This document shows, piece by piece, positions 10,216-14,221 of a DNA stretch of 64,000 nucleotides. The position numbers and the translations under genes are program-made. Origin of the DNA: Escherichia phage 232Ecol030PP; sequence record PP355090.1. One strand, given 5' to 3'. Numbering within the stretch: the first letter of the stretch is position 1; each line of letters begins with the position of its first letter. The notes under the pieces are model-generated. The model saw only the letters and a program-made list of their open reading frames with translations, searched no databases and was not told the origin of the DNA.

Positions 10216-10686
10216 TTAATCATGTGTCCACACCCCATCGGTATTTGACCAAAGCCGCTGATTATCTGATCCTCTCCACAGCTTTTTGGTCGGAAGATTT
10301 TTCTCATACTTCCCATCAATAATAACATCAACATATTTAAGCATTTCTAGTTGTTTAATATCTTCAAACTTATATCCTGTCCACAACCAAATGCTTTTAT
10401 TTGGATAAAGATTTTTTACTGTTTGAACAATGCAATGAATAACATCTCGATTATCAGGATAGAGAGGGTCTCCTCCAGTTATAGTTAATCCTTCTATATA
10501 ATCATTATTCAAACATTCAATTAATTGTTCTAGTGTTTCACCAGTGAATGGAATACCATTTCTAGCATTCCATGTTGATTTATTATAACACCCTTCGCAT
10601 TTATGCAAACAACCTGTAACGAAAAGAACGACCCTGCAACCAGGGCCATTCACAAAATCGCAAGGATAAAATCTATCATAATTCAT
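10216..10686 (-). CDS. nrdG: anaerobic ribonucleotide reductase activating protein NrdG (radical SAM)
   Basis: 156 aa with CxxxCxxC cluster (GCLHKCEGC); ATGA overlap with nrdD stop. Confidence 0.9.
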   Translation of the reverse strand: MNYDRFYPCDFVNGPGCRVVLFVTGCLHKCEGCYNKSTWNARNGIPFTGETLEQLIECLNNDYIEGLTITGGDPLYPDNRDVIHCIVQTVKNLYPNKSIWLWTGYKFEDIKQLEMLKYVDVIIDGKYEKNLPTKKLWRGSDNQRLWSNTDGVWTHD

Positions 10687-12500
10687 TGATGCTTAACCCT
10701 ATGCATGATTTCTTTATTTTTGCCGAGATTAAATCCGCGTTCGTTCGGATTTCCCAAATAACCACATGTTCTTCTTATTGTATTCATCTTTTTAGGATCA
10801 GTTTCTCCACAAATAGAACAAACAAATCCGTTTTCAGTAGGAGTCATTTCATGGGTACTTCCGCATGTAAAACATTTATCCACTGGCATATTAACACCAA
10901 AATAATCTAAATGTTGTGCAGCATAATCCCATACGGCCTCAAGACCTTTCAAGTTATTTTTCATATCAGGAAGTTCAACATAAGAAATGTGACCACCTGT
11001 CGCAATGAAATGATATGGCGCTTCACGAGAAATCTTTTCAAACGGAGTAATATTTTCTTCTACTGAGACATGGAAACTGTTAGTGTACCAGCCTTTATCG
11101 GTAACATCTTTTACACTTCCATATTTTTCTGTATCGAGTTTACAGAAGCGATAACAAAGGTTTTCAGCAGGAGTCGAATATAAACTAAAAGCAAATCCGG
11201 TTCTTTCAGTCCACTGTTTAAGATGAGCATTCATTTTAGTTAAAATTTCTCGTCCAATATCACGACCGACAAGAATATTCAATTCGTGAATACCAATGTA
11301 TCCTAAAGACACTGAACTTCTACCGTTTTTAAATAACTCAATTATATCGTCATCAGGTTTAAGACGAACCCCAAATGCACCTTCTTGGTAAAGAATAGGA
11401 GCAACAGTAGCTTTAACTCCTTTTAAGGAACTAATTCTACACATCAAAGCTTCAAAACATAAATCCATTCGTTCATTGAACAATTCAACAAATTTCTGTT
11501 CATTGAACTGTGTTCCAATATAAGAATCTAACGCGATGCGAGGAAGATTCAGTGTTACAACACCAAGATTATTACGTCCATCAAGAATTTCATTACCAGT
11601 CGAATCTTTCCATACGCCCAAGAAACTACGGCAACCCATTGGAGAAACAGGAACAGATGAACCAGTGATAGCTTTATTGTTCTTAGCTGAAATAATATCA
11701 GGATACATCCTTTTGCTTGCACACTCTAGAGCAAGCTGCTTAATATCATAGTTCGGATCGTCTTTATAAAGATTAACACCTTCTTCAACGAACATAACAA
11801 GCTTAGGGAAAATAGGAGTTATTCCATCACGACCAAGACCTTTAATACGATTTTTCAGAATTGCTTTCTGAATCATTCGTTCAGTCCAGTCAGTTCCTGT
11901 ACCAAATGTAATTGTTACAAAAGGTGTTTGTCCGTTTGAACTAAAGAGAGTATTTACTTCATATTCATAAGCTTGGAATGCATCGTATACATCTTTTTCT
12001 GTTTTAGATTGAGCATAATTCAACGCATCAGCGATTTGCCATTTTTCTGCATCCTCAATATGTTTTGCATAGGTGCGTTTAACATAAGGAGAAAGTACTT
12101 TATCGACATTAGCAAATGTAGTTCCGCCATACTGGTGAGAAGCAACCTGTGCAGTAATTTGTGCCATAATTGCAGTAGCAACACCGATTGATTTAGGAGT
12201 TTCAATCTGTGCATTACCAAGCTTAAATCCGTTCTCAAGCATTCCTTTTAAATCTACTAAACAACAATTAGTAAATGGAAGAGCAGGGGAATAATCAATA
12301 TCGTGGAAATGGATAATTCCGCTTTCATGCGCTTTCATAATAAAAGACGGGACCATATTTTTGGCAATGTGTTTAGACACAATACCAGCCATAAGGTCCC
12401 GTTGAGTTGGAAAAACACGAGAATCTTTATTAGCATTCTCGTTTAAAAGGTCTTTATTAGTTTTATGAATCAATCCTTCAATTTCTTTTTCAATTGTCAT
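10683..12500 (-). CDS. nrdD: anaerobic ribonucleoside-triphosphate reductase NrdD, uninterrupted (no intron)
   Basis: 605-aa continuous ORF ending with glycyl-radical motif RTCGYLG and C-terminal Cys cluster. Confidence 0.92.
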   Translation of the reverse strand: MTIEKEIEGLIHKTNKDLLNENANKDSRVFPTQRDLMAGIVSKHIAKNMVPSFIMKAHESGIIHFHDIDYSPALPFTNCCLVDLKGMLENGFKLGNAQIETPKSIGVATAIMAQITAQVASHQYGGTTFANVDKVLSPYVKRTYAKHIEDAEKWQIADALNYAQSKTEKDVYDAFQAYEYEVNTLFSSNGQTPFVTITFGTGTDWTERMIQKAILKNRIKGLGRDGITPIFPKLVMFVEEGVNLYKDDPNYDIKQLALECASKRMYPDIISAKNNKAITGSSVPVSPMGCRSFLGVWKDSTGNEILDGRNNLGVVTLNLPRIALDSYIGTQFNEQKFVELFNERMDLCFEALMCRISSLKGVKATVAPILYQEGAFGVRLKPDDDIIELFKNGRSSVSLGYIGIHELNILVGRDIGREILTKMNAHLKQWTERTGFAFSLYSTPAENLCYRFCKLDTEKYGSVKDVTDKGWYTNSFHVSVEENITPFEKISREAPYHFIATGGHISYVELPDMKNNLKGLEAVWDYAAQHLDYFGVNMPVDKCFTCGSTHEMTPTENGFVCSICGETDPKKMNTIRRTCGYLGNPNERGFNLGKNKEIMHRVKHQ

Positions 12501-12970
12501 TTTAAACTCTTTCTAAGCTGCTTCTTAAATGAAGCTATTAACTGTGTTTTGGTGTCAGATTCATTATATTCAAATCCTCTTTGAAGCATCTCGGCCATCA
12601 TTTCCTCTTTTCCTAAACGAGAAAATTCCTTTGATTTATCTCCAACAAAGTTAGGGTGAATATTATTTTGGGTGTAATCGGATTTTAAATAAGTAAGTAA
12701 ATTTTCTAACCATTCAAGATAATCAACACCTTGTCCCTTTAAGCCAGAACGATTAAATTTATGCTTCATTTGACCTTCTGCGGCATTGCATAGATTACAA
12801 AGCAATCCACGTACCTTTCCTGCTTTTGGTCCATTTAATTCATGGTCATGATCAAGATGATTAGCTTGAACATCAGGATTTAGTTCTCGTTGGCAAATTA
12901 AGCATTTACCGTTTTGTGCATTATAAAATTTCTGTTTTTCTTCTTTGTATAATTTGCCAGTCAATAACAT
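12497..12970 (-). CDS. 49: endonuclease VII (Holliday junction resolvase) gp49
   Basis: 157-aa ORF with zinc-binding Cys cluster; recognised as T4 endo VII. Confidence 0.88.
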   Translation of the reverse strand: MLLTGKLYKEEKQKFYNAQNGKCLICQRELNPDVQANHLDHDHELNGPKAGKVRGLLCNLCNAAEGQMKHKFNRSGLKGQGVDYLEWLENLLTYLKSDYTQNNIHPNFVGDKSKEFSRLGKEEMMAEMLQRGFEYNESDTKTQLIASFKKQLRKSLK

Positions 12971-13012
12971 AATAAAACCCTTACCTTAAATAGATAAGGG
13001 TATTTATTATTT

Positions 13013-13189
13013 TTAAGTATTGTAAAACATTCGATGCAATCGTTTATACTGTCGAATCATCTTTTTAGTAGGACGAGAATAGGTTCCTACGCAAGTGGTC
13101 ATATGAGGGTCCGTAGAATGTCCTTTAATAAAAAGTTTCCAAACCTTACCGCCATTTAACTTTTCAGTATAAACCAATTCGGTTTTCAT
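13013..13189 (-). CDS. hypothetical 58-aa protein with pin-like C-terminus
   Basis: ATG at 13189; C-terminal IRQYKRLHRMFYNT matches the pin C-terminus; encoded over repeat copy A. Confidence 0.35.
   Translation of the reverse strand: MKTELVYTEKLNGGKVWKLFIKGHSTDPHMTTCVGTYSRPTKKMIRQYKRLHRMFYNT
13015..13058. repeat. direct repeat copy A (pin 3'-end-like)
   Basis: 44 nt aagtattgtaaaacattcgatgcaatcgtttatactgtcgaatc, 4 mismatches to copy B. Confidence 0.8.
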
Positions 13190-13224
13190 TAAAATGTCCT
13201 GTCAGAAAAAGAATTTTGAGTTTT

Positions 13225-13710
13225 TCAAGTATTGTAAAACATTTGATGCAATCGCTTATATTGCCGAATCTTTTGGTCAGAAAAAGAAATTTGAGTTTCA
13301 AGCCATTCAATGTACTCTGCGGCAGCTTGCATCAGGTTACCTTCATAGCCATCGTTATTTTCTTGTGCAGCTAATTTAGCTAATGCGTATGAAATACGTT
13401 CACCTTGAAAATCGGCTTTAGGCTTCTGAACAACTTGATTAGTTCGCTCTACAACTTCTTCAATTTCGCCATTTTCGACTGATTCAGTATTCCACAAGCA
13501 CCAATACGTAATTGGCTTATCATAGATGTTAATAATCTTTCCGTCGGAAAGTTCAATTTCAATAATTCCAGTGTCAGGCTCTATATCATCTTCACATTCT
13601 TTTGCAAGTTCACGAACTTTAAAGACAGTACCTGCACTAAGTTCCGGCCAGTAATTACATAGCCCTGTATCAATACGATTAATTCTAAACCACTTATCTA
13701 CTGTAATCAT
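13225..13710 (-). CDS. pin: protease inhibitor PinA (inhibitor of host Lon)
   Basis: ATG at 13710 gives 161 aa MITVDKWFRINRIDTG...; position between nrdC and 49 as in T4. Confidence 0.7.
   Translation of the reverse strand: MITVDKWFRINRIDTGLCNYWPELSAGTVFKVRELAKECEDDIEPDTGIIEIELSDGKIINIYDKPITYWCLWNTESVENGEIEEVVERTNQVVQKPKADFQGERISYALAKLAAQENNDGYEGNLMQAAAEYIEWLETQISFSDQKIRQYKRLHQMFYNT
13227..13270. repeat. direct repeat copy B (3' end of pin)
   Basis: aagtattgtaaaacatttgatgcaatcgcttatattgccgaatc; flanked by 23-nt direct repeats at 13201-13223 and 13276-13298. Confidence 0.8.
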
Positions 13711-13832
13711 GTCCCATCTCCATATCAATTAAGTCATTTATCGTTGGTTCATTATATACTGTTTCTTCATCAGTGTAAACCGGTTCTTCCGGCTCTGGCT
13801 CTACAGTTTCCCATCTAGCCGCCCACCAAGGT

Positions 13833-14003
13833 TTAACCCCGAAGCTTATTAAGTTCTTCATAATCAATCCAGGATTCTAATCCTGATGGCAAATCAGATT
13901 CAATTTCCCAAAGAAGTTCTTCAATTTTATGAAGACGATCTAGTTCTTCAGCAGGAATAGTAACCACTGACGGAGCTCTTGCTACATTAATATCGTAAAT
14001 CAT
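13833..14003 (-). CDS. hypothetical small protein
   Basis: First ATG at 14003 (track start 14042 is GTG); 56 aa. Confidence 0.4.
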   Translation of the reverse strand: MIYDINVARAPSVVTIPAEELDRLHKIEELLWEIESDLPSGLESWIDYEELNKLRG

Positions 14004-14005
14004 AT

Positions 14006-14221
14006 TTACCCCAGTTTGACCATGCAATCGCCGTATTTCCACTTAGAAATAGACTTTTCACCGTTAGAATAATAAACTTCGAGTTTAGCACGATTATTTT
14101 TAATTTGAATAACCATTGCTGTCATCAAAGTTCCATACCCATAATAAACTGCAACTTCATCACCTACATATACCGCGCTTCCGCGGTAATCATGAATATA
14201 GTCAGTTCCTTCGAGCATCAT
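14006..14221 (-). CDS. hypothetical protein
   Basis: 71-aa ORF, ATG start. Confidence 0.5.
   Translation of the reverse strand: MMLEGTDYIHDYRGSAVYVGDEVAVYYGYGTLMTAMVIQIKNNRAKLEVYYSNGEKSISKWKYGDCMVKLG

Follow-up and report, generated by a model that had tools for sequence, protein, structure and literature searches.

Rearrangement of pin and a neighbouring DUF7279 gene in a Tequatrovirus, and the probable source of the C-terminal tail of PinA

Genes and repeats at the locus

We analysed a 64,000-nucleotide (nt) stretch of DNA from Escherichia phage 232Ecol030PP (sequence record PP355090.1; this whole stretch is called the window below), in which pin, the gene of a Lon protease inhibitor, lies next to a small gene of the DUF7279 family from which it very probably received its 3' end. 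The source phage is a Tequatrovirus, and bases 12900-13800, which are 99.8% identical to Yersinia phage PYps5T, match 700 phage records. The genes of the locus are all on the minus strand. In gene sense, pin (13225..13710; 161 amino acids, aa; PF10465 match) comes first, in what we term its T4-type fused form. It is followed by a stretch that we read from the sequence as a relic of a tail-less pin, its final ten codons with the stop codon (13189..13223), by the DUF7279 gene (13013..13189; 58 aa; PF23945 and phrog_3272 matches) and by a hairpin or terminator-like element. The downstream neighbour that anchors the locus is gene 49 (12497..12970), an open reading frame (ORF) of 157 aa that is annotated as endonuclease VII in PYps5T and T4.

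Two repeats lie across these genes. R1 is a direct repeat that pairs 13010-13058 (R1A) with 13222-13270 (R1B) at 44 of 49 positions; its 44-nt core (13015-13058 against 13227-13270), with four mismatches, is the repeat of the pin end that a preliminary description of this DNA had reported and that we recovered in a longer form. R2 pairs 13201-13223 (R2A) with 13276-13298 (R2B) at 22 of 23 positions, in agreement with the earlier report that a 23-nt segment from inside pin recurs just downstream of the pin stop. R1A covers the 3' end of the DUF7279 gene (...MIRQYKRLHRMFYNT, stop TAA) and R1B codes for the 15 C-terminal residues of Pin (KIRQYKRLHQMFYNT, with its TGA stop at 13225-13227), while R2A belongs to the relic and R2B holds the pin codons for ETQISFSD, the original of this repeat. 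Between R1A and R2A lie 142 nt (13059-13200; put at about 150 bp of unrelated sequence in the preliminary description) without a counterpart in pin. They comprise DUF7279 codons 1-43 and the translation-initiation region on the minus strand, and are absent from T4.

When 12900-13800 was shuffled 200 times with dinucleotides preserved, no pair of 49-mers gave more than 33 matches (the mean of the best pairs was 28.0) and no pair of 23-mers more than 19, levels that R1 and R2 far exceed. A third candidate repeat (D5, 13114-13135 and 13190-13211; 18 of 22), which hinted at a periodicity of 75-76 nt, fell inside the shuffle range and was rejected as probably due to chance. A search of Rfam with 12800-13900 gave only sub-threshold matches (26.5 and 21.6 bits, where the gathering score is 50), so no RNA family accounts for the repeat. 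As the arrangement recurs in about 110 independent GenBank phage genomes, it is not an assembly artefact.

The small gene and its C-terminal tail

The 58-codon ORF at 13013-13189 has the pin-like C-terminus that was described for it, its protein ending in ...IRQYKRLHRMFYNT and Pin in ...IRQYKRLHQMFYNT. It matches PF23945 with 62.7 bits (cut-off 24.5; E=3e-17), residues 7-56 lying on profile positions 1-53 of 53 with the tail included, and phrog_3272 with E=3.4e-34, residues 1-58 lying on a profile of 59 positions. Set beside this family (RB32ORF078c, RB69ORF087c), the window ORF is full length and shows no difference at the sequence level. In phage RB32 the same arrangement is already annotated, and the 2006 record of RB32ORF078c reads 'similar to RB69ORF087c, JS98orf087clike, pin'. 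The ratio of non-synonymous to synonymous substitutions (dN/dS, Nei-Gojobori) is 0.03-0.3 in all 36 pairs, which span three genera and have synonymous sites near saturation between genera. The ORF evolves as a protein-coding gene under purifying selection. Tail-bearing homologues adjoin gene 49 in Gaprivervirus (RZ, VR26), Mosigvirus (ATK48) and Carettavirus (phiE142), and a U-region DNA match in JS98 and JS10 suggests that the JS98 group has DUF7279 as well. Judged by its sequence, the ORF is a real, independent gene and a full member of the DUF7279 family. This overturns the earlier view that a partial duplication of the pin 3' end yielded the ORF, and the intervening sequence, which had been considered a possible decayed insertion, is part of the intact DUF7279 gene.

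The tail that DUF7279 has in common with the T4-type Pin is the most conserved part of the small protein. In an alignment of 16 sequences from two paralogue groups, the invariant residues are M1, L5, Y7, W17, R39, P40, T41, K42, R46, K49, R50, H52, R53 and F55. The signature R-P-T-K-x3-R-x2-K-R-x-H-R-x-F, invariant in the same alignment, is present in the window ORF, and with the exception of RPTK the invariant block R39-F55 sits within the tail. An AlphaFold2 model made from the alignment (mean predicted local distance difference test score, pLDDT, 88.9) shows three beta-strands and then one helix at residues 42-57; in this predicted beta-beta-beta-alpha fold, the tail is the single helix of the protein. 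The protein is basic, with 12 lysine and arginine residues against 3 aspartate and glutamate residues and an isoelectric point of 10.1. A profile search of 1.84 billion representative proteins returned eight hits, all of them T4-like phage proteins, fragments or spurious repeats, indicating that the family is narrow and nearly confined to T4-like phages. Sequence searches of the PDB with Pin and with DUF7279 gave no match, and thus no solved structure for either, and DUF7279 is mentioned in no paper of the literature that we searched.

Pin and the T4-type fusion

T4 PinA (PF10465, Inhibitor_I24) is an inhibitor of Lon (Skorupski et al. 1988, Hilliard et al. 1998, as cited in PMC8835725) that is still used as a reagent; its binding site on Lon was unmapped in 2021, and competition with HspQ has been suggested (PMC8835725). 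The window Pin, at 161 aa, is closely similar to T4 PinA over its full length, including the tail, and by this near-identity it should bind and inhibit Escherichia coli Lon. The two loci differ downstream of the gene, where the window has the pin-end relic and the intact DUF7279 gene, both absent from T4.

The profiles place the last 15 residues of PinA outside the Pin family domain. The match to PF10465 (161.7 bits, cut-off 27; E=1e-47) covers Pin residues 4-141 and that to phrog_2167 (E=7.5e-66) residues 1-146. Both family profiles end before residue 147, and residues 147-161 match positions 44-58 of phrog_3272. Many Tequatroviruses (e.g., KIT03 and SA20RB) have a Pin of 148 aa that ends in ...ETQISFSDRAF and has no tail. 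More distant Pins (40-52% identical, 136-144 aa) end in ...ERRLS, ...EFSSKSF or ...AFSDRGF, and the Pins of Gaprivervirus (57 aa) end in ...ADKAF and adjoin a DUF7279 that does have the tail. Outside the T4 subgroup, Pins stop within three residues of the junction and carry nothing that resembles the tail. The stop codon of pin and the start codon of DUF7279 overlap (TAATG or TGATG) in Gaprivervirus RZ and in KIT03 and SA20RB, both Tequatroviruses without the tail; genes that are translationally coupled are commonly arranged in this way.

Because DUF7279 carries the tail in genera where Pin is tail-less (Gaprivervirus, Mosigvirus, Carettavirus), we read Pin as ancestrally without a tail and the small gene as the donor of the tail, with pin as its recipient. 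The preliminary description had seen a rearranged duplicate of the pin 3' region produced by illegitimate recombination. A rearrangement is indeed present and is polymorphic among relatives, T4 lacking the whole 212-nt unit, but its direction was reversed, since the tail is native to DUF7279. Likewise, the small ORF does represent an independent family under purifying selection, while the arrangement around it is not conserved in all relatives.

The origin of the fused gene can be read by comparing the segment bounded by the pin codons for AAEYIEW and the ATG of gene 49. This segment measures 280 nt in KIT03 and SA20RB, whose arrangement we call type A, and 143 nt in T4 and G28. The difference of 137 nt is 2 modulo 3 and brings the DUF7279 frame exactly into the pin frame. 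Type A reads ...TCT GAC CGA GCG TTT TAATG...AAA AAG ATG ATT CGx CAA... and T4 reads ...TCT GAC CGA/ATG ATT CAG CAA..., which is exactly type A minus 137 nt. T4 Pin, ...SFSDR/MIQQYKRLHQMFYNT, accordingly corresponds to the type-A Pin up to R146 joined to DUF7279 from M44, and its tail abuts the gene 49 hairpin. In the window the fusion junction is D145-Q146/K147-I148 (GAC CAA/AAG ATT). Microhomology at the junction amounts to 1 nt at most, which marks the deletion as illegitimate. All sampled fused pins have the same junction together with a CGA-to-CAA change (R to Q) at the position of the family-invariant R53, pointing to a single origin of the fusion; the alleles RM (T4), QM (RB32, S2_01) and QK (window, G28) are single point changes apart. 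We put the probability that the tail is native to DUF7279 and that the T4-type Pin is a deletion fusion at about 0.93. A chimeric C-terminus of PinA derived from DUF7279 is seemingly unreported in the literature searched, although public databases already contain the arrangement as well as the two families.

The window arrangement and its distribution

In gene sense, the arrangement of the window, which we call the W type, reads pin...ETQISFSDQ-KIRQYKRLHQMFYNT-TGA-AAAA/ACT CAA AAT TCT TTT TCT GAC AGG ACA TTT TAATG-DUF7279...MIRQYKRLHRMFYNT-TAA-hairpin-gene 49. The 33 nt at 13189-13221 translate in the pin frame as T-Q-N-S-F-S-D-R-T-F-stop, and their TAA overlaps the DUF7279 ATG, leaving the TAATG intact. 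These residues match the type-A pin ends ...SFSDRAF (KIT03, SA20RB) and the ...ADKAF of Gaprivervirus, and phage S2_01 carries a variant of the relic that ends in ...SDKAF. The 23-nt repeat is therefore no random scrap: it belongs to what is left of the 3' end of a second pin, one without the tail. R1 consists of the native DUF7279 tail and its captured copy in pin, and R2 of the resident pin 3' end and the donor relic. The join of the W type lies inside an A-run directly after the pin stop (...AATACTTGAAAA/ACTCAAAATTC...). CTTGAAA is common to the T4-type genomes (...ACTTGAAAATAATAAATA) and the type-A pins (...GGCTTGAAACTCAAA).

In the phage collection, the part of the ORF that is unrelated to pin (13059-13200) occurs in 265 records at 266 places. 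A very uniform W haplotype, at 99% identity or more, accounts for 110 of the 265 records and includes RB32; 63 records at 90-95% identity are type-A Tequatroviruses, and about 87 come from other genera. The 54-nt pin tail alone is matched by about 270 records, which represent the T4 type. W-type genomes match a probe across the W junction as one unbroken piece, type-A genomes as two. Scans of IMG/VR gave six loci each. Among these 266 places, no genome with two full copies of DUF7279 at this site was seen.

Two features of these genomes bear on the relative age of the types. The sampled T4-type tails all end in TGA-AAATAATAAATA, like type A, while W-type DUF7279 tails all end in TAA, so that the sampled T4-type genomes are not recent products of a deletion between the two R1 copies of a W-type genome. 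In addition, the pins of the T4 type are allelically diverse (RM, QM, QK and H-to-N variants), whereas the W-type DUF7279 segment is at least 99% identical across its 110 records, suggesting that W is the younger haplotype.

Order of events

We propose three states. In the first, type A, a tail-less pin ending in ...SFSD(R/K)xF would have had a stop overlapping the DUF7279 ATG, with DUF7279 a gene of its own for a 58-aa protein whose C-terminal helix reads ...RPTKKMIRQYKRLHRxFY.... A non-homologous deletion of 137 nt in the lineage leading to T4 and its closest relatives would then have removed the pin stop and DUF7279 codons 1-43, putting pin in frame with the last 15 DUF7279 codons and so creating the 161-aa PinA of the T4 type. 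Finally, a genome with the fused pin would have regained an intact DUF7279 from a type-A genome through an illegitimate join in the A-run, bringing along 33 nt of the donor pin 3' end and producing the W type. The order from type A through T4 type to W is favoured by the diversity of T4-type pins beside the uniformity of W, by the TGA and TAA stops, and by the lack of a sampled genome with a double DUF7279. We regard the full account, re-acquisition included, as likely, with less confidence than the fusion itself; both the order of events and the preference for re-acquisition over tandem duplication are inferred. Several observations weigh against it. Among the sampled type-A genomes, no candidate donor reaches 95% identity to the W copy of DUF7279, the closest lying at 90-95%. 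The W junction contains five or six A's where a clean crossover in CTTGAAA would leave three, so that the join can have been guided only loosely by microhomology. Furthermore, W could itself be an intermediate, formed by tandem duplication and a deletion in the upstream copy, if the T4 type arose from it before the TAA mutation.

We hold this last order to be unlikely. A tandem duplication of the pin 3' end plus DUF7279 in a type-A genome would have been followed by the 137-nt deletion in the upstream copy, fusing pin and leaving the downstream copy whole, and the T4 type would have appeared later by homologous deletion between R1B and R1A. Such a history follows the classic path of duplication and modification, in which the function of DUF7279 is never lost, and simple deletions between R1B and R1A (49 nt) or R2B and R2A (23 nt) could restore the T4 type and type A. 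A tandem duplication could have been seeded by CTTGAAA, present at the end of R1 and just ahead of the ACTCAAA core of R2. It needs, however, three events to reach the T4 type instead of one, and it fits poorly with the stop codons, the greater diversity of the T4-type pins and the absence of double DUF7279 copies noted above. Re-acquisition after fusion remains the order that we prefer.

The repeats themselves could be taken to mean that a duplication of the pin 3' end happened to close a meaningless short ORF, as a by-product of rearrangement or of a decayed insertion. Both repeats do exist, and as T4 lacks the segment, an insertion or duplication relative to T4 is the obvious first reading. 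We nevertheless consider it very improbable: the ORF belongs to a Pfam and a PHROG family with low dN/dS, it bears the tail in three genera in which Pin either has none or is missing (Gaprivervirus, Mosigvirus, Carettavirus), and the tail is both its best-conserved segment and its single predicted helix, while recent transfer from W-type phages into other genera is excluded by synonymous divergence (dS) of about 0.6 to over 2. Even less credible to us is that pin and DUF7279 have an ancient homologous C-terminal motif that gene conversion has kept alike without any fusion. The genes are adjacent and the common segment is 90% identical, as gene conversion would have it, yet the Pins outside the T4 subgroup have no tail-like sequence, the W copies keep fixed differences (the R/Q codon, the stop codon and two synonymous sites) with no homogenisation visible, and the T4 sequence equals type A minus exactly 137 nt.

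Constraint on the captured tail and a possible Lon connection

Five pin-tail alleles differ at four non-synonymous sites and one synonymous site, and three Tequatrovirus DUF7279 tails at no non-synonymous and three synonymous sites (Fisher P = 0.07). In addition, the pin tail has lost the family-invariant R53 and in some alleles also H52 (H to N). Together these differences suggest that the captured tail is under relaxed or altered constraint, and it may be a tolerated passenger in Pin. An AlphaFold2 model of Pin is of middling quality (mean pLDDT 67.7); it continues a helix into the tail at pLDDT below 50, too low for the placement of the tail to be read.

A further idea concerns the C-terminal Lon degron of SulA (Sul20), a disordered peptide in which Y19 and H20 contact the N-domain of Lon (PMC8087443). 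Like the Pin tail, Sul20 is C-terminal, basic and aromatic, and it ends in H-S-N-L-Y-H where the Pin tail has H-Q-M-F-Y-N. The likeness, of the form H-x-x-hydrophobic-Y near the C-terminus, extends over six residues, carries no statistical weight, and stands against the predicted helix in a compact fold that the tail forms in DUF7279. One might speculate that the DUF7279 helix is a portable Lon-directed module, that DUF7279 proteins are small Lon-binding competitors or decoys, and that Pin gained affinity or a second contact by capturing it; we consider this improbable. Were it true, the helix could have been captured once in the T4 lineage and once in a Mosigvirus-like phage (see below), and the idea would account for the in-frame nature of both partial deletions, the lasting adjacency of the genes and the retention, in some phages, of a free DUF7279 beside the fused pin. 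A tail under relaxed constraint in Pin, as suggested above, speaks against it.

Instability of the locus and significance

Other phages show further rearrangements of pin and DUF7279. A second, independent in-frame fusion of the two genes is found in a Mosigvirus-like contig (Logan SRR20302901; locus L022, 1501-1926), where a protein of 141 aa (P0038) ends in ...EYLERRFHRDFYNVY. Its junction, ...EYLERR/FHRDFYNVY, corresponds to a deletion of 168 nt at a CGTTT microhomology. This fusion is absent from GenBank phages and occurs in a single Logan assembly, and recurrence of pin-DUF7279 fusion is thus weakly supported. In mar005P1, DUF7279 has been cleanly lost. In Mosigvirus ATK48, two DUF7279 paralogues flank pin (locus L013, 1237-1416 and 1841-2011), while phiE142 (locus L015, 1237-1407) has no pin and a single chimera made of the body of the upstream paralogue and the ...FYNVY end of the downstream one, the crossover apparently lying within ACTTTTAT, which is common to both paralogue tails. 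In VR26 (locus L004, 1709-1978), an ORF of 89 aa stands between pin and DUF7279 and has one base in common with each neighbour at stop/start overlaps. The related RZ has an undisturbed TAATG at this place, which appears to have received an entire gene in VR26.

Three more cases come from contigs. A protein of 191 aa in European Nucleotide Archive (ENA) contigs (P0037) joins the upstream DUF7279 paralogue to the N-terminus of a Mosigvirus-type Pin and contains both Pfam domains; it could be a real read-through fusion or an artefact of gene calling or sequencing. A protein of 142 aa from one ENA contig (P0030), with the first 83 Pin residues followed by a C-terminal segment of Peptidase_S24 (LexA/UmuD-like), may be a chimeric assembly. 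In a metagenomic Mosigvirus-like contig (L021), DUF7279 is seemingly frameshifted after residue 7 (MKTALFFWRKNKRAKILEIC...), through either decay into a pseudogene or an error in sequencing.

In the variable ('hyperplastic') regions of T4-type genomes, small early genes that lie between conserved core genes come and go and recombine at short stretches of homology. The present locus resembles such regions in the loss in mar005P1, the chimera in phiE142 and the insertion in VR26, and we conclude that it is a polymorphic rearrangement scar of ordinary T4-type modular shuffling. It differs in that the breakpoints here lie inside coding sequence and gave a stable chimeric PinA, not just a reordering of whole genes. 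The locus traces how chimeric proteins arise by small deletions between adjacent, translationally coupled genes, and how a lost gene may then be regained. PinA is the reference phage inhibitor of Lon, and on our reading its last 15 residues would be a recent graft from a neighbouring gene. Caution is therefore advisable when PinA is modelled or its domain limits are set, and natural tail-less Pins of 148 aa exist.

Regulatory context and neighbouring genes

A strong sigma-70-like promoter (13751..13779, minus strand; TTTACA-17-TATAAT, 11 of 12 positions) lies upstream of pin and, from its consensus match alone, is likely to be the early promoter of a pin-DUF7279 transcript, from which both genes would probably be expressed. 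An AGGA motif resembling a Shine-Dalgarno sequence stands 7 nt ahead of the DUF7279 ATG. We considered whether AGGA/AAGG was a later adaptation after coupling to pin was lost, and rejected this, as type-A pins naturally end in these purine-rich codons (D-K-A-F, D-R-x-F). The hairpin or terminator-like element mentioned above (12969..13010, minus strand; -18.1 kcal/mol, z=-4.8) sits directly ahead of the gene 49 start and has a terminator-like site at 13001-12977. It encloses the gene 49 ribosome-binding site, and its sequence is unchanged across all arrangement types. On its 5' side is AATAAATA (13001-13008), which we take to match the T4 late-promoter consensus at 7 of 8 positions and which would then be a late promoter. 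In T4, translation of gene 49 on early read-through transcripts is reported to be blocked by such an element (Barth et al. 1988), and the hairpin is presumably its counterpart here.

Beyond pin, the locus continues with 49.1-like ORFs and then nrdC. The stretch from pin/49.1 to nrdC (window 13694-14221, minus strand; locus L002, 2148-2773) is unlike that of T4 and constitutes another variable cassette: T4 has 49.2 (321 nt) and 49.3 (309 nt), and the window and PYps5T have unrelated ORFs of 171 and 213 nt. On the far side of gene 49, nrdD (10683-12500, minus strand, from the ORF list) is a single unbroken ORF of 605 aa, where the T4 annotation joins two pieces around the I-TevII intron, indicating that this phage lacks the group I intron of nrdD. 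Within pin, a G+C-rich inverted repeat, CTTTCCGTCGGAAAG (13534-13559/13537-13551), was flagged by the scan as terminator-like on the plus strand, the non-coding sense, and is probably incidental.

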